Source: Oligoflexia bacterium (GTDB lineage Bacteria > Bdellovibrionota > UBA1018). Taken from it: a stretch of 64,000 nt of DNA. The DNA is taken from assembly GCA_046317855.1 (NCBI GenBank), contig JBKCVM010000147.1:3956-67955 (forward strand), read 5' to 3'. The position numbers and the translations under genes are program-made. Positions 4,197 to 24,530 of the stretch are shown piece by piece; position 1 is the stretch's first letter; each line of letters starts with the position of its first letter. Below the pieces are notes generated by a model. It saw nothing but the letters and a program-made list of their open reading frames with translations. It was not told where the DNA came from and did not search any database.

Positions 4197-4286
4197 GGAG
4201 AGGTGGCAGAGTGGTCGAATGCGCCGGTTTTGAAAACCGGAGTGGGGGCAACCTCACCGGGGGTTCGAATCCCTCCCTCTCCGCCA
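4197..4286 (+). tRNA. tRNA-Ser (anticodon UGA), 90 nt with long variable arm and encoded CCA
   Basis: Acceptor GGAGAGG pairs with CCTCTCC. Anticodon stem CCGGT/ACCGG with loop TTTGAAA gives anticodon TGA. T-loop TTCGAAT; discriminator G plus CCA. Lies 15 bp downstream of serS. Confidence 0.85.
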
Positions 4287-5855: not shown

Positions 5856-5945
5856 GGAGAGATGGCCGAGTGGTCGAAGGCACACCCTTGCTAAGGGTGC
5901 AGGGGAGAAATCCCCTCGAGAGTTCGAATCTCTCTCTCTCCGCCA
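5856..5945 (+). tRNA. tRNA-Ser (anticodon GCU), 90 nt with long variable arm and encoded CCA
   Basis: Acceptor GGAGAGA/TCTCTCC; anticodon stem CACCC/GGGTG with loop TTGCTAA gives anticodon GCT; T-loop TTCGAAT; discriminator G plus CCA. Confidence 0.85.
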
Positions 5946-17942: not shown

Positions 17943-18887
17943 TTAGATCTTGATGACCTCAATCCCCTTCTGCCGCTCCCTTGGGAGCTCTGCCGGTAGC
18001 GCAGCCTGTACCTGAACTGCCAGGGCTTCAAGAATGGGCTGCTTGTACTGGGTGCGCCGGTACACCAGGCTCACCTCGCGGCTCGGGACTGGTCGCGTAA
18101 AGGGTTTGAGCAGTTCGCGCCGGTGGCGCGAGAGCGAGCGCGTCGCGAGTAGCGGTAGAAGCGTGTAGCCGTATCCCTGCTCGACGAGATGGATCACCGT
18201 CTCGAGGCTTCCGCTTTCAAAGCGTACGTTCGAAAAAATACCGGGTTTTCCTCGAAGCGAGCAAATCCGCACGATTTGATTTCTGAGGCAGTGCCCCTCC
18301 GAGAGAAGCCAGAGATCGCGCCCGTCGAGTTTGTCTTCGTTGATGGTTTCTAACTTTGCCATTGGATGGCCCGCGCTTACAAAAAGACTGAAGGGCTCAT
18401 AGTAAAGCGGACGCTCCACCAGGCTCTCGACCTCAAGCGGGGTGGCCAAAATTCCCGCATCGATGCGATCCTGCTCGAGCGCCGCGATGATGTTTTCTGT
18501 CGTCATCTCTTCGATCAGTAGCTTGACCTCGGGGTAGCGCGTCGCAAAGTCACCTAAGAAAAGCGGCAACAGGTACGGCGCAATGGTCGGAATCAGCGCC
18601 AGCCTGAAATCTCCCGTGGGTTCGTTTTTGCGATTGCGGCAAAGGTGGTCGAGTTTTCCAACTTCACGCAACACCGACTTGGCCTGCTCGATCACCGCAA
18701 GTCCTTGTTGCGTTGGAAGAATAGGTTGTTTGCTGCGGTCAAAAAAAGTGAGTCCGTACTCTTCTTCGAGTTTGTGCAGCTGCATGCTGAGCGTCGGCTG
18801 AGAGACGTGGCAGGCCTTGGCCGCCTTGCCAAAATGCCGGTGCCGGTCAACCGCAATCAAGTATTCGAGCTGCGTGAGGGTAGCCAT
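17943..18887 (-). CDS. oxyR: LysR-family peroxide-sensing regulator OxyR
   Basis: N-terminus MATLTQLEYLIAVDRHRHFGKAAKACHVSQPTLSMQLHKLEEEYG is close to E. coli OxyR. Conserved redox Cys region (GHCLRNQ) is present. Divergent from ahpC. Confidence 0.85.
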   Translation of the reverse strand: MATLTQLEYLIAVDRHRHFGKAAKACHVSQPTLSMQLHKLEEEYGLTFFDRSKQPILPTQQGLAVIEQAKSVLREVGKLDHLCRNRKNEPTGDFRLALIPTIAPYLLPLFLGDFATRYPEVKLLIEEMTTENIIAALEQDRIDAGILATPLEVESLVERPLYYEPFSLFVSAGHPMAKLETINEDKLDGRDLWLLSEGHCLRNQIVRICSLRGKPGIFSNVRFESGSLETVIHLVEQGYGYTLLPLLATRSLSRHRRELLKPFTRPVPSREVSLVYRRTQYKQPILEALAVQVQAALPAELPRERQKGIEVIKI

Positions 18888-18891
18888 AACG

Positions 18892-18928
18892 ATAGTTTAT
18901 ATCTATCACACGATCAAAACAATCGATT
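18892..18928. promoter_or_regulatory. OxyR-box-like operator in the oxyR-ahpC divergent region
   Basis: ATAG-N7-CTAT (perfect half) followed by the degenerate second half TCAA-N7-GATT with the same 7-nt spacing (consensus ATAG-N7-CTAT-N7-ATAG-N7-CTAT). Confidence 0.4.
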
Positions 18929-18979
18929 TTAGCTTTTGGCGGCCTTGAGGCAGAGTCGAACCATAAGGAGAATTCAAAA

Positions 18980-19546
18980 ATGGCAACTCTGATCAATAGC
19001 AAAATCCCAGACTTTAAGGCCGAAGCGTACCACAACAACGCCTTCAAGACCGTGACTCAGAACGATCTGCGCGGAAAATGGTCGGTCCTCTTTTTCTATC
19101 CCGCCGACTTCACCTTCGTGTGTCCCACGGAGCTGGGCGACATGGCCGACAAGTATGATGCCTTCCAGAAGATGGGCGTCGAAGTCTACTCGGTGAGCAC
19201 CGACACGCACTTCACCCACAAGGCCTGGCATGACACTTCTGAGACGATCAAGAAGATCCGCTACCCGATGCTGGCTGACCCCACGGGCCACCTGACCCGT
19301 GCTTTCGGCGTGCACATCGAAGAGGCCGGCCTGTGCTACCGCGGCACCTTCGTTGTGGATCCCGAAGGCAAGATCAAGATCGCTGAAATCCATGACAACG
19401 GAATTGGCCGCAACGCCGATGAGCTGCTCCGCAAGGTGCAGGCTGCGCAGTTCGTGGCATCGCATCCGGGCGAAGTTTGCCCCGCTAAGTGGACTCCAGG
19501 GGCAAAGACCCTGAAGCCCGGTCTCGACCTGGTCGGCAAGATCTGA
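18980..19546 (+). CDS. ahpC: Alkyl hydroperoxide reductase C (typical 2-Cys peroxiredoxin)
   Basis: FTFVCPTEL peroxidatic Cys motif and resolving Cys EVCPAKW near the C-terminus; RBS AAGGAGA. Confidence 0.9.
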   Translation: MATLINSKIPDFKAEAYHNNAFKTVTQNDLRGKWSVLFFYPADFTFVCPTELGDMADKYDAFQKMGVEVYSVSTDTHFTHKAWHDTSETIKKIRYPMLADPTGHLTRAFGVHIEEAGLCYRGTFVVDPEGKIKIAEIHDNGIGRNADELLRKVQAAQFVASHPGEVCPAKWTPGAKTLKPGLDLVGKI

Positions 19547-19592
19547 GGAATCTTACGCTGAGGCCCGGCGCCTCGGCGGAGATGTTTTCGTC

Positions 19593-19620
19593 GGGGGAAG
19601 GGGGCGTTCCCTCTTCCCCC
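19593..19620 (+). terminator. Stem-loop in the ahpC-ahpF intergenic region (possible partial terminator/attenuator)
   Basis: GGGGGAAGGGGG-cgtt-CCCTCTTCCCCC (12-bp stem, one mismatch); a T-tract follows only after 16 nt. Confidence 0.35.
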
Positions 19621-19655
19621 GACTTCTTGGCCCCGATTTTTTACGGAGGTGCACC

Positions 19656-21284
19656 GTGAGTGACGCAGGCGGCTTGGATCTCGAAATGCTGGAGCAGCTC
19701 AAGGGCGTGTTTGCGCGCCTTGAAAACCCCGTCACGCTTCGAATTGAAAAGGGTGGGGACGAAAATCCCCAAAGCGCAGAGCTTGAGCAAATGCTCAAGG
19801 CCGTCGCTTCCGCTTCTCCCAATGTAAAGGTCGAGCACGGACCCCGCGTTTCTCCTGGCACCGCTCCCGCATTCGAAATCTTGCGCGGCACTCCCGGTGT
19901 GCTGCGCACCGGCATTCGGTTTCGTGCGATTCCGGGCGGGCACGAGTTCAGCTCGCTTGTGCTTGCCATTTTGCATGCCGACGGCAAGGGCAAGCTTCCG
20001 GACGAAGCCGTCACCCAGCGCATTCGCGCGCTTCGCGGGCCGATCCGGCTTCGCACCTACATGTCGCTTTCGTGCGAAAACTGCCCCGAAGTGGTGCAGG
20101 CCCTGAACCTCATGGCAGCCCTGCACCCGGACTTTGAGCACGAAACCATCGATGGCGCGCTTGCGCAGCAGGAAGTCACGGCACTCGCAATCCAGGGCGT
20201 GCCTGCAGTGGTTGCGCCGGGAGCGTTCGAAAGCGAGTGGAACCTTCTGCACTCGGGCAAGATCGCCCTGATCGACCTGCTCGCAAAGCTCGAGGCCCGT
20301 TTTGGAAAAAACGAGGCGGCGGTGACCACCCCAAAAGATCTCGGCCGCTTTGATGTCGTCGTGGTGGGCGGGGGTCCGGCGGGAGCCTCGGCTGCCATCT
20401 ATTCGGTGCGAAAGGGCCTGAGCACGGTCGTGCTTGCCGAACGGTTTGGTGGACAACTGCAAGACACCAAGGGCATCGAGAACATGATTTCGAAATCGTA
20501 CACCGAGGGCGTGCGCCTTTCGGCCGAACTTGCCGAGCACCTGGGCAAGTATCCGGTACGACTTCTTGAGCATAGGCGCGTGAATCGCGTGGGCCCACGT
20601 GACGGCGATGGGTATCGGCGCGTGGATCTGGAGAGCGGCGAGACGCTCGAGGCGCGAACGCTGATCGTGGCCACGGGCGCCAAGTGGCGGGAGCTCGGCG
20701 TGCCTGGAGAGAAAGAACACATCGGGCAGGGGGTTGCGTTTTGCGCGCACTGCGACGGGCCATTCTACAAGCAAAAGCGAGTGGTCGTCGTGGGTGGCGG
20801 AAATTCAGGTGTCGAGGCGGCGATCGATCTCTCTGCCATTGCAACCCATGTGACGCTGCTGGAGTTTAACACCGAACTCAAGGCCGACGGCGTGCTCGTT
20901 GAAAAGCTCAAGACCCTCGGCAATGTGGTGGTCCATACCGGCGCCCGCACCACGCGTGTGCTGGGTGAAGGTGGAAAGGTGGTTGGCCTTGAGTACGAGG
21001 ATCGCGAAAGCGGCCAAGTGAAGCGGCTCGATGTGGATGGAGTGTTCGTCCAGATCGGGCTTCTTCCGAACTCGCAGTTCGTCAAAGGCATCGTTGAAAC
21101 CACGCCCTACGGCGAAATCGTGGTCGACTCCAAGGGCCGCACCAACGCTCCGGGCATTTACGCTGCGGGCGATGTGACCACCGTGCCCTTTAAGCAAATC
21201 GTCATTGCGATGGGCGAGGGCGCCAAGGTGGCGCTCGCCGCATTTGAAGATCGGATGCGCGAAGCCCCTACGCCGCCAGTTTGA
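19656..21284 (+). CDS. ahpF: Alkyl hydroperoxide reductase subunit F
   Basis: N-terminal thioredoxin-like double domain with CENCPE, FAD/NAD(P) binding GGGPAG, redox-active CAHCDG. GTG start preceded by GGAGG. Confidence 0.9.
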   Translation: MSDAGGLDLEMLEQLKGVFARLENPVTLRIEKGGDENPQSAELEQMLKAVASASPNVKVEHGPRVSPGTAPAFEILRGTPGVLRTGIRFRAIPGGHEFSSLVLAILHADGKGKLPDEAVTQRIRALRGPIRLRTYMSLSCENCPEVVQALNLMAALHPDFEHETIDGALAQQEVTALAIQGVPAVVAPGAFESEWNLLHSGKIALIDLLAKLEARFGKNEAAVTTPKDLGRFDVVVVGGGPAGASAAIYSVRKGLSTVVLAERFGGQLQDTKGIENMISKSYTEGVRLSAELAEHLGKYPVRLLEHRRVNRVGPRDGDGYRRVDLESGETLEARTLIVATGAKWRELGVPGEKEHIGQGVAFCAHCDGPFYKQKRVVVVGGGNSGVEAAIDLSAIATHVTLLEFNTELKADGVLVEKLKTLGNVVVHTGARTTRVLGEGGKVVGLEYEDRESGQVKRLDVDGVFVQIGLLPNSQFVKGIVETTPYGEIVVDSKGRTNAPGIYAAGDVTTVPFKQIVIAMGEGAKVALAAFEDRMREAPTPPV

Positions 21285-21645
21285 AGGTCACTTCTTTATA
21301 CTCGACCTGCGGCTGTCGAACGGTACGCCCGGAAACCTTGGCCTTCTTGACCCGGATTACGCCAACTTCTTCGAAGAATCGGATGACCTTGTTCAGGTTG
21401 GAGATGTCGGTGCCGGTGAGCTTGGCCAGTTCGTAGATTGAACGGGGCTTGTAGGCGATGATTGCGGACAGAATTGGAATGTTCCGAACAAAGCGATTGA
21501 AGTCCGTCTTGTTGTCAAAGCTCACCTCAAATTCGGCTTCGCCCCGAAATGTCCCCTTCTGGACCGAGCGGGCTGCTCGCTTGAAGTCTTCAAACACCTG
21601 GTCTGCCGTCTTGCACGAAACTACGAGTCTTTTCACAGGGCTCAT
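21268..21645 (-). CDS. Winged-HTH DNA-binding protein (125 aa), downstream member of a TA-like pair
   Basis: HTH segment SIYELAKLTGTDISNLNKVIRFFEEVGVI. Start overlaps the stop of the upstream 70-aa ORF (ATGA, 4 bp). 3' end overlaps the ahpF 3' end convergently by 17 bp. Confidence 0.5.
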   Translation of the reverse strand: MSPVKRLVVSCKTADQVFEDFKRAARSVQKGTFRGEAEFEVSFDNKTDFNRFVRNIPILSAIIAYKPRSIYELAKLTGTDISNLNKVIRFFEEVGVIRVKKAKVSGRTVRQPQVEYKEVTFKLAA

Positions 21646-21854
21646 ATGGATACTCCCATGGTTTCTTTGACCAGGCTCCGAAAGTCAGCCACCAGTTGGT
21701 CAAGGTCGGTAAATCGGTAGGGCAGCTCAGTGTCGTCGACATGAATATGCGGCCCCTTGGGGTGATGGTTGTCCATTAGGATCCGCTTGTTGCCCGCCTG
21801 ATCAATGCAAACAAGGCCCCACTTCAGTCCGTCCGGGTAACGCTCAGTGCCCAA
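21642..21854 (-). CDS. Small protein with HHP...PHIH motifs (70 aa, TTG start), possible DUF6516/TumE-like toxin-type component, possibly N-terminally truncated
   Basis: ILMDNHHPKGPHIHVDD. Only a TTG start is available, and an in-frame stop lies 8 codons upstream. Translationally coupled to the wHTH gene. Confidence 0.4.
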   Translation of the reverse strand: MGTERYPDGLKWGLVCIDQAGNKRILMDNHHPKGPHIHVDDTELPYRFTDLDQLVADFRSLVKETMGVSI

Positions 21855-21891
21855 AACCTCATGTATACGTCCGTGGGGTCAAATGGCGCGG

Positions 21892-23163
21892 CTAATGGCG
21901 CCACCGTCTGGGCCTGCTACGGCGCTGCTGGCCGGGTTGGGCATGGCCGTTGGGTCGTGCGGGAGCGGGCTTCGCTCCGGCCGGCGCAGATCGAGGGGCG
22001 GACGCAGCAGCCACCAGTGCCGGAGCTTTTCCGCCAATGAGCTTTTGGATGCGCCCCCACATTTCGCGGTCTTCGGGCCCGAGGATGCTCACGGCTTCGC
22101 CCTCGGCTCCGGCTCGCGCCGTGCGGCCGATGCGGTGCACGTAGTCTTCGGGGACCTGCGGCAGGTCGTAGTTGATCACATGTCCGATGTGCGAAATATC
22201 GAGTCCGCGTGCCGCGATATCAGTTGCAACGAGGATTCGAAACTCACCAGAGCGAAACCCGTCCATCGCGCGGTTGCGCTGGCCTTGGGTGCGATCGCCG
22301 TGGATTCTGGCAACGGGCAGGTTGTACTGCCCTAGAAATTTTGCCACGCGATCGGTGCGGTGCTTGGTGCGCGTAAAGATAATGATCGAGCCCGGGCGCT
22401 CGTTGATGAGGTCCAGCAGCACATCATTTTTGTTTGCGGGCTTACCTCCGGCCTTGGGCTGCGCCCCTAGCTGCACGATCGATTGCTGGATTTTTTCGAC
22501 CGGACGCGAGACGGCGCCAATCGACACGCGCGTGGGCTGGTGGAGCATCTGCACGGCAAGTTTTTCGATTTCTGGGGCAAGAGTCGCTGAAAAGAGCAGG
22601 GTCTGCCTCTTTTTTGGAAGGTGCCTCAGGATCTGATTGAGCTGCGGTGCAAAGCCCATGTCGAGCATGCGGTCTGCTTCATCCAGGACCAGCGTGGACA
22701 CGTGCGACAGGTTGACGCCGCGCTCCTTGAGGTGGTCGCAGAGTCGGCCCGGAGTGGCGATGATGATCTGGGGGCGTGACATCAGCGCGCGAGTCTGCTT
22801 GTGCATCGGGGCCCCTCCGATGATGAGTGCAGCCTTGATCTGAGGGCAGAACTGCGCAAGTTCGCCCAGCACTTCGGTGACCTGTTGCGCCAGCTCACGA
22901 GTGGGAACCAAAATGAGCGCCGAAGGACCTAAGGGCTTCTGCTGCTCCAAAAGGTGCGTGATCAGCGGAATTCCAAATGCTGCTGTCTTGCCCGTGCCCG
23001 TCTGTGCGCAGGCAATCAGGTCGTGCCCCTCGAGGGCCACCGGAATGGACTGGGCTTGTACGGGAGTGGGGATTTTGAATTCCATGGCATGGAGTGCACG
23101 GTTCAGGCGCTCAGGAAGTTCGAGGGAGTCAAAAGAGGTCAGCGGGGAAGAGTTGGTAGTCAT
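21892..23163 (-). CDS. DEAD-box ATP-dependent RNA helicase
   Basis: Q motif (PTPVQ), Walker A AQTGTGKT, DEAD, SAT, and HRIGRTARAG motifs. Arg/Gly/Pro-rich C-terminal tail. Start ATG 23163 (MTTNSSPLTSFDSLEL) or GTG 23220. Confidence 0.85.
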   Translation of the reverse strand: MTTNSSPLTSFDSLELPERLNRALHAMEFKIPTPVQAQSIPVALEGHDLIACAQTGTGKTAAFGIPLITHLLEQQKPLGPSALILVPTRELAQQVTEVLGELAQFCPQIKAALIIGGAPMHKQTRALMSRPQIIIATPGRLCDHLKERGVNLSHVSTLVLDEADRMLDMGFAPQLNQILRHLPKKRQTLLFSATLAPEIEKLAVQMLHQPTRVSIGAVSRPVEKIQQSIVQLGAQPKAGGKPANKNDVLLDLINERPGSIIIFTRTKHRTDRVAKFLGQYNLPVARIHGDRTQGQRNRAMDGFRSGEFRILVATDIAARGLDISHIGHVINYDLPQVPEDYVHRIGRTARAGAEGEAVSILGPEDREMWGRIQKLIGGKAPALVAAASAPRSAPAGAKPAPARPNGHAQPGQQRRSRPRRWRH

Positions 23164-23418
23164 ATGAATTGGTCGGGTATAGCAGCGTTTGTGGGACAAA
23201 GATAGTCTGGTTTTCCACACTGACCAAACCGATCCCTGTTTTTGAACGAATCTTGGGCTCTCAAGCCCCGGTAGTTCAAAGTTCAGATCAATGCTCAGGC
23301 CTAAATTATTGCTTCATAGGGGCAGGGAGCAGTTCAGGATTTTCACTTGCTGCCCGCAGCCGCCAAAGGTACCACCGCCGTCAACTATCTCCTGATCTAA
23401 AATAGGAACTTTTTTTCG

Positions 23419-24423
23419 ATGTCATTACTCACTAAAGCGGTTGCACCTTTTTTGTTTAGTATTGCGCTTGCTCCTATGGCTCATGCTGCGCCGGCCCCGT
23501 CATTATCTAATGTCGGGCCTGGAGTTGGATCTGGATCTTCAAGCCTGCCTCCCAGCTCGTCCGGAACCTCGATGGGAACTTCAACCTCGTCGCGTCCGAC
23601 GTCGGGCATCGGCCGATTCTTGGGCTTGAGCTATATGTCTTTTTTCAATGGCCCAGCCCTCAACGGAGATTTTTGGAAAAGTCCGGGCGCCACGGGCCGG
23701 CCGAGTGATTTGGGTTGGACGCTCAATAACAACGCGTCCGTTAAGTATAAGTTTAGTCAAAATTATGCCTTCGATGTGCAGTTTCGTTTTCAGGGGGTGC
23801 TGTCCAATCAATTTGGTGCTCGCTGGCAGGGTGCGCGTGTCGGGATTTCAGGTCTCTTAGGCAGAATCGAAGCGCAGAGTTTTCAGCTGATTTGGACCGG
23901 TGCCGTTAATACCGACGTTCCAGGAATGGGCCAGATCAATCAGGACCGTACCGTGATCATGAATCCCGGGCTCTTTTCAAATCTCACGGTGCGTCCGCGA
24001 GGAAGTCGCTGGTCTTTGTACACTTTCTTGTCGCCCAGAGTATTTCTCTACCGAGATAACCTCGCAATGGAGCCTCAGGCAGCCATGATGGGCATGAACC
24101 CCGGCGATAAGCCGCAGATCGCGTTTTTTGCGATTCCTTCGGTAAACTACGACATCTCTGAAAACACTGCTCTGCGTTCAGGCATCACGATCAACATTTC
24201 TAAGAATGCAAACTCATCCAGCTTTCGCCGGTGGTTTGCGCCGATCGACTTTGGAATCTCTCACAAGTTCAATCAAGCTCTGAGCATCTATCCCAACGTT
24301 TCGGTATCAGGGCCCTGGGATGATGGCATTAGGCAGGACATGGCAGCCCGGCGGGGGAGCTCGGTCATGGATTGGACCAAGACAGCGAGCGTGGGCCTCT
24401 GGCTCAGCGGAACTATCCTATAA
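23419..24423 (+). CDS. Secreted or outer-membrane protein with Ser/Gly-rich N-terminal linker and probable beta-barrel
   Basis: Signal peptide ...PMAHA; low-complexity SSSLPPSSSGTSMGTSTSS; alternating hydrophobic beta-strand pattern; C-terminal aromatic residue. Confidence 0.45.
   Translation: MSLLTKAVAPFLFSIALAPMAHAAPAPSLSNVGPGVGSGSSSLPPSSSGTSMGTSTSSRPTSGIGRFLGLSYMSFFNGPALNGDFWKSPGATGRPSDLGWTLNNNASVKYKFSQNYAFDVQFRFQGVLSNQFGARWQGARVGISGLLGRIEAQSFQLIWTGAVNTDVPGMGQINQDRTVIMNPGLFSNLTVRPRGSRWSLYTFLSPRVFLYRDNLAMEPQAAMMGMNPGDKPQIAFFAIPSVNYDISENTALRSGITINISKNANSSSFRRWFAPIDFGISHKFNQALSIYPNVSVSGPWDDGIRQDMAARRGSSVMDWTKTASVGLWLSGTIL

Positions 24424-24452: not shown

Positions 24453-24530
<78 letters not shown>

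Follow-up and report, generated by a model that had tools for sequence, protein, structure and literature searches.

Two short open reading frames (ORFs) lie in tandem on the reverse strand of contig JBKCVM010000147.1, from a metagenome-assembled genome (MAG) of an Oligoflexia bacterium. We analysed a 64-kb stretch of this contig (hereafter the window). The upstream ORF encodes a 70-amino-acid (70-aa) relative of the TumE toxin and the downstream ORF encodes a 125-aa winged-helix protein of the HVO_A0114 family, hereafter the partner. The upstream ORF begins with TTG and has an in-frame stop codon upstream, and its TGA stop codon overlaps the ATG of the partner gene within the ATGA at 21642-21645. 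The ORF list and the sequence agree on all these points with the original prediction, which had been made from the sequence alone and had further placed the pair convergently against ahpF; the 3′ ends of ahpF and the partner gene indeed overlap by 17 nt. A gene for a DEAD-box RNA helicase, on the same strand, ends at 21892, immediately upstream of the module.

Both ORFs were assigned to Pfam families with scores above the curated gathering cut-offs. The 70-aa ORF matched TumE (PF20126, DUF6516) with 28.3 bits over profile positions 18-80 of 81 (cut-off 23.4 bits), and the 125-aa ORF matched HVO_A0114 (PF25212) with 35.4 bits over positions 8-84 of 84 (cut-off 27.6 bits), so that the two family assignments proposed in the original prediction are borne out by profile searches. 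Homologues at E ≤ 1e-3 numbered 89 for the small protein and 277 for the larger one; given the Pfam matches and these counts, neither is a chance ORF. No NCBIfam model matched either protein. A profile search of the wider TumE family returned 421 cluster representatives at E ≤ 1e-3, with full-length relatives typically of 95-110 aa. The 70-aa ORF contains ILMDNHHPKGPHIHV and keeps the histidine-rich core DNHHPKGPHIH, corresponding to residues D54-H64, which are invariant among 45 homologues. An identical 70-aa protein is present in NCBI under the entry “MAG: DUF6516 family protein [Oligoflexia bacterium]”.

The history of the short ORF became apparent from a sister allele. P0091, a 109-aa call whose sequence matches the partner exactly, led to L065, a 1325-bp metagenome contig (Joint Genome Institute sample 3300042368) that carries a complete 96-aa tumE at the same locus, between the same flanks, and includes the same ahpF/module junction. 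L065 is 98.4% identical to the window over 1209 bp and 100% identical over the 28 bp adjoining the helicase stop codon. Relative to L065, the window has undergone one clean 88-bp deletion: nt 29-116 of L065 are missing, and the junction (21864|21863) shows neither microhomology nor a flanking repeat. The lost segment consists of GTGGTAAAATTTTACCTAT, followed by the ATG and codons 2-23. It contained the -10 hexamer TAAAAT, most of an operator palindrome (ATAGTGGTAAAATTTTACCTAT, the L065 counterpart of the consensus ATATTGGT-N7-ACCAATAT), the start codon, and codons 1-23 of tumE (MKAALVRHQKFLIRGRFLVEISV). The residual 222 nt of tumE match L065 with 0 mismatches, and the partner gene differs by 1 synonymous mismatch in 378 nt, leaving the protein identical. 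This near-absence of divergence in the module marks the deletion as recent, and with a sister strain preserving the ancestral allele, the inactivating event can be defined to the base.

The locus is very probably a TumE/HVO_A0114 cassette made toxin-null by a deletion, and it belongs to a toxin-first branch within the TumE-TumA toxin-antitoxin superfamily. It is a module of known type in ordinary decay, not a new system. The original prediction had remarked that the small ORF is shorter than typical family members and may be a decaying copy, which is now proven, as 88 bp of the full 96-aa gene in the sister strain are missing here. The N-terminus, which it had proposed to check for truncation, is indeed truncated, and the lesion is a deletion of the promoter and the 5′ end, not a frameshift. 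A frameshift origin was rejected because three-frame translation upstream of the TTG shows that the N-terminus is absent and does not continue in another frame. Compared with its 96-aa homologues (60-76% identical; most of those listed among the 89 are 96 aa long), the remnant lacks the first 26 residues. Similarity extends about 4 codons upstream of the TTG, up to the junction, and the in-frame TGA (21879-21881) follows 5 codons further, internal to the retained -35 hexamer TTGACC. Coordinates of these features are collected in Table 1.

Table 1 Features of the tumE/HVO_A0114 locus and of the adjoining genes (positions in the window)
Feature	Position	Strand	Basis or remark
tumE remnant ORF, 70 aa, TTG start	21642..21854	-	ORF list; equivalent to ancestral 96-aa TumE/DUF6516 residues 27-96
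Remaining sequence that aligns with the intact tumE allele, from codon 24 to codon 96 and the stop	21642..21863	-	blastn against L065
Deletion junction	21863..21864	-	Two blastn segments, abutting in the window and separated by 88 nt in L065
Retained tumE -35 hexamer, TTGACC	21877..21882	-	Sequence; comparison with L065 and 34 intact loci
HVO_A0114-family partner, intact, 125 aa; putative TumA-type antitoxin/autorepressor	21268..21645	-	Pfam, homologues, AlphaFold2 (AF2) model
GGGAG Shine-Dalgarno-like motif, 7 nt 5′ of the partner ATG	21653..21657	-	Read from the sequence
DEAD-box RNA helicase gene (RhlE-type), outside the module	21892..23220	-	Pfam DEAD and Helicase_C
ahpF (alkyl hydroperoxide reductase subunit F), context only	19656..21284	+	Pfam Pyr_redox_2 and related families

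Mismatches between the window and L065 are very unevenly distributed over window positions 20655-21863: the module (about 600 nt) has 1 and the adjacent ahpF segment (about 630 nt) has 18, of which 13 are clustered between 20735 and 20880. This pattern suggests either a recombination tract in ahpF or a more recent shared ancestry of the module.

To judge what the deletion removed from the protein, we used an AF2 model of the intact 96-aa homologue P0002, built from a 45-sequence alignment (mean predicted local distance difference test score, pLDDT, 95.3). The model comprises β1 (residues 4-13), β2 (17-25), β3 (36-44), β4 (50-56), β5 (60-65), β6 (68-71), and a helix (77-92). Without residues 1-23 (1-26 if translation starts at the TTG), the window TumE would lack β1 and most of β2 and keep strands β3-β6 and the C-terminal helix. 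The complete α+β fold is thus not present in the window TumE; the intact subfamily model itself has six strands and one helix, compared with the antiparallel sheet packed by helices, with seven strands and two helices, described for TumE by Durairaj et al. (Nature 2023, PMC10584680). Two of the 15 residues invariant among the 45 homologues, K10 and E20, are also lost. The remnant has no ATG, and a GAGG sequence lies just 2 nt upstream of its TTG. No -10 element now follows the retained -35 hexamer, and no promoter-like or terminator-like sites were predicted in the 21100-23500 region. With the -10 hexamer, operator, and ATG gone along with codons 1-23 (β1, most of β2, K10, and E20), we conclude from the sequence and the predicted fold that this strain would make no functional TumE.

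The partner gene, by comparison, could still be expressed. Its GGGAG motif means that the partner could be translated independently of the tumE remnant. The gene is now promoterless and no terminator-like site was found between the helicase gene and the module, which leaves the helicase gene as the sole plausible source of transcription; the partner is probably transcribed solely by read-through from it. We also sought other targets of the orphan regulator; with up to 3 mismatches allowed, the 64-kb window contained no operator-like palindrome. It contained no second copy of TumE or of the partner either.

The partner itself appears well preserved. Its homologues are 70-88% identical (122 aa), and all family-invariant residues are present in the window copy. 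In the AF2 model (mean pLDDT 79.8), an N-terminal β-α-β region of lower confidence (about residues 6-43) precedes a winged helix-turn-helix (HTH) at residues 46-123, which comprises predicted helices at 46-54, 56-65, 70-77, and 81-94 and then a β-wing at 97-123. Foldseek matched the model to the winged helices of ArsR, TFE-alpha, and MarR proteins (probability about 1.0, E about 0.01), and a TrmB-like resemblance was also seen. The N-terminus reads MSPVKRL in the window and MKRL in most homologues, owing to about 9 extra nucleotides after the ATGA overlap (window 21634-21645). These nucleotides make the partner 125 aa long instead of 122; translation could alternatively begin at a GTG in the homologous position, and L065 has the same form.

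The intact cassette was characterised in a survey of about 46 independent loci, which were retrieved through TumE homologues and through the partner, mostly by short partner peptides. Nearly all belong to MAGs of Bdellovibrionota (Bdellovibrionales, Bacteriovoracales, and Oligoflexia). At all 33 intact loci, a tumE gene of 96 aa (93 aa at one locus) precedes a 120-125-aa HVO_A0114 gene and overlaps it by 4 nt, and the two proteins co-vary in pairwise identity (r = 0.90). Flanking genes differ among loci and are often of mobile or toxin-antitoxin (TA) type, such as the resolvase, HTH_3, and PemK genes in L005 and the integrases in L007 and L059. The same toxin-first arrangement occurs in distant relatives on two alphaproteobacterial plasmids, where TumE scores 46-48 bits and HVO_A0114 60-96 bits against the Pfam models; one of these (L069) is a conjugative Sinorhizobium meliloti plasmid on which the pair sits by a VbhA antitoxin gene and an IS6 transposase gene. 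The conserved pairing anticipated by the original prediction is therefore found, in unrelated contexts and with tumE directly upstream throughout.

Intact copies also share an upstream element (34 of 34), consisting of a TTGACA-like -35 hexamer, a spacer of about 17 nt, and a TATAAT-like -10 hexamer; the loci include L001 (3930-4003), L003, L009, L010, and 30 others. The -10 hexamer lies within the inverted repeat ATATTGGT-N7-ACCAATAT, the last two bases of which are the AT of the tumE ATG in all 34 copies. As only about 8 nt separate the -10 hexamer from the ATG and no Shine-Dalgarno sequence is present, the mRNA of the intact module is probably leaderless or nearly so. One apparent exception in protein length, the 79-aa call P0009 (L059:2950-3240), was rejected as a short TumE: its frame is open to an upstream ATG, giving a normal 96-aa protein, and the full-length gene has the usual promoter and palindrome. 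Other database entries of 74-79 aa may be similar start-site miscalls.

Independent lesions confined to tumE were detected in five lineages besides the window. A 19-bp tandem duplication (CACGAGAAATTCATAGTTC, present twice) shifts the reading frame after codon 13 in L060-L064 (L060:157-300). This same duplication was seen in five or more contigs from five sequencing runs and so represents a circulating allele; the partner is intact wherever covered. L025 (2714-3001) has an in-frame 22-codon deletion that removes the WGL...MDNHHPK core and leaves promoter and partner intact. In L008/L014 (L008:1-368) the 5′ end of tumE is degraded and contains an in-frame stop, L038 (2714-2760) carries a frameshift near codons 11-14, and in L054 (2950-3065) tumE is deleted save for the last few codons (..EHMGV*I) before the partner. 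Both genes have decayed in L041 (2990-3290), where a lone truncated partner remains without tumE. The record containing L025 is labelled “MAG: Streptomyces griseus”, yet the contig is AT-rich with a Bdellovibrionota-type module and is probably mis-binned. Several calls of 74-79 aa had raised the possibility of a breakpoint hotspot near residue 18, which was rejected, since P0009 (L059) is the miscall noted above and P0015 (L060-L064) reflects the 19-bp duplication.

No damaged partner beside an intact tumE was found among the surveyed loci. With lesions distributed in proportion to gene length, all six one-gene lesions, the window included, would fall in tumE with a probability of (291/660)^6, or about 0.007. 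This asymmetry, read from gene sequences, fits a toxin-antitoxin pair. Orphan antitoxins and degraded TA loci likewise combine an inactivated toxin gene with an intact antitoxin gene. The window shows the same one-sided loss, recurring in five other lineages, and differs in that its ancestral allele is at hand from a sister strain.

The intact module probably works through a type II-like toxin-antitoxin mechanism. A sigma-70-type promoter close to the ATG would drive the 96-aa tumE together with the overlapping 122-125-aa winged-helix gene. The partner would neutralise TumE by binding it, and a partner dimer would bind the palindrome over the -10 hexamer and start codon and so repress its own operon. 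Free TumE would block protein synthesis, possibly as a ribonuclease (RNase), by homology to tested relatives. After the deletion, no functional toxin would be made, and the untouched partner, with its own ribosome-binding site, would be expressed by read-through from the helicase gene. HigBA and MqsRA are toxin-first type II systems with an HTH antitoxin, in which the DNA-binding antitoxin presumably represses at a palindrome overlapping the promoter. The present cassette resembles them in organisation only, there being no sequence or fold relationship.

The closest experimental counterpart is TumE-TumA, defined by Durairaj et al. (PMC10584680). In that study, toxicity in E. coli was shown for six DUF6516 proteins from Gammaproteobacteria, and the product of the neighbouring gene neutralised them; the Allochromatium tepidum TumE lowered 35S-methionine incorporation, and RNase activity was proposed, not proven. 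The validated pairs belong to subcluster 1a, and a RelB-like partner was reported within cluster 1 (PMC10584680). Like TumE-TumA, the family studied here has a TumE model match over threshold, a histidine-rich core, and a bicistronic arrangement with a predicted DNA-binding partner. Unlike the validated pairs, in which the antitoxin gene comes first, the window family is toxin-first, and its HVO_A0114 winged-helix partner is unrelated to theirs. The validated synthetic toxin genes were also longer (398-461 bp with flanks) than tumE here, which encodes 96 aa when intact and is 5′-deleted in the window. In a structure comparison, no solved structure or known toxin fold resembled our TumE model, as was also reported for TumE in PMC10584680. 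The partner is similar to its HVO_A0114 relatives on plasmids in its score over threshold, its winged HTH, and its pairing with tumE, although the Bdellovibrionota clade scores just 33-35 bits, compared with 60-96 bits for the plasmid relatives. The literature searched contained no mention of HVO_A0114.

Several observations weigh against reading the locus as the remnant of a TA cassette. The experimentally validated pairs are antitoxin-first with unrelated antitoxins, unlike the toxin-first, HVO_A0114-partnered subfamily. This subfamily stands at the weak edge of PF20126 (28-32 bits; the intact allele in L065 and the homologue P0002 score 30.5 and 32.0 bits), and two of its members, P0041 and P0084, score nothing at E < 0.1. 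Retrieval through the partner was biased against loci that lack it; frameshifts or stops in the partner would nevertheless have been visible, and none were. The partner is more conserved than TumE (mean pairwise identity 66% and 57%, respectively), the reverse of many type II systems. Finally, the deletion allele is known from one assembly, a MAG, and no second copy was recovered when metagenome contigs were scanned.

Some of these points would fit a cassette that is not a TA system at all and instead combines a small enzyme or ligand-binding protein with a dedicated transcription factor, the window then showing the loss of a dispensable accessory gene. The greater conservation of the partner is in keeping with this, as are the lack of a match to a known toxin fold and the result from defence-system models: PADLOC gave no match for TumE and only a weak Csa3-like HTH match for the partner. 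We nevertheless consider this explanation unlikely, given the homology, over the Pfam threshold, to experimentally toxic TumE proteins and the six lesions in tumE alone set against zero in the partner alone. The 4-nt overlap, the palindrome over the promoter, the scattered mobile contexts, the PemK and VbhA neighbours, and the conjugative plasmids likewise argue against it. The original prediction had also raised an abortive-infection or stress role, which found no support, as TumE had no PADLOC match and no relatives were found among the viral contigs searched.

A distinctly unlikely possibility concerns why the partner persists: it may be kept as an orphan antitoxin against incoming tumE elements or as a regulator co-transcribed with the helicase gene, and more broadly the partner may be the main functional unit, with TumE as its modulator. 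If this were true, the branch would be mechanistically distinct from the validated TumE-TumA pairs.

The deletion could, in principle, be an assembly or consensus artefact of the MAG, with the organism itself carrying an intact module. The single source assembly would allow this, and an exact 20-mer scan of metagenome contigs for either allele yielded no independent copy, only two unrelated chance matches, in a scan that failed to recover even L065. Such an artefact is very improbable, however, because nothing at the junction, neither repeat nor microhomology, could have made an assembly graph collapse, the flanks of the clean deletion match perfectly, and comparable natural lesions occur independently in other lineages, one of them in at least five contigs from five runs; if only a minority of the population carried it, the deletion would still be a genuine allele. 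It is scarcely credible that the 70-aa ORF encodes a naturally short but functional TumE in a working TA module: the ORF is open, scores over the Pfam threshold, keeps the histidine-rich core, the C-terminal helix, and the ATGA overlap, and is annotated in NCBI as a protein and not as a pseudogene, but it derives by deletion from the 96-aa gene of a near-identical strain, lacks two of six β-strands together with K10 and E20, has neither an ATG nor a predicted promoter and has its GAGG only 2 nt from the TTG, and is unlike the intact surveyed loci, which carry a gene of about 92-96 aa, the short calls examined being a miscall (L059) or lesions (L060, L008).

The tumE/partner remnant abuts the 3′ end of a classical oxidative-stress cluster (17943-21284), in which a LysR/OxyR-like regulator gene (17943-18887, reverse strand) is divergent from ahpC (18980-19546, forward strand) and ahpF. 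An Rfam scan of the window detected three tRNA genes and nothing else: tRNA-Pro (CGG) at 24453-24530, about 2.6 kb from the module, and two tRNA-Ser genes (TGA and GCT anticodons) farther off, at 4197-4286 and 5856-5945.

The pairing of TumE with HVO_A0114 is already known and defined in Pfam, and the locus has been caught just after a deletion took away the 5′ end of the toxin gene together with its promoter and operator, leaving an orphan winged-helix partner. Current understanding of toxin-antitoxin biology is unchanged by these findings. The public 70-aa “DUF6516 family protein” entry should read as a 5′-truncated pseudogene or remnant. The intact L065 allele and the 88-bp-deleted window allele form a natural matched pair that differs by one defined event and offers a ready-made control for toxicity assays. 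The toxin-first TumE/HVO_A0114 branch is widespread in predatory Bdellovibrionota and also occurs on alphaproteobacterial plasmids, and it has two testable features: a near-leaderless promoter set in a conserved palindrome whose end runs into the start codon, and recurrent one-sided loss of tumE.

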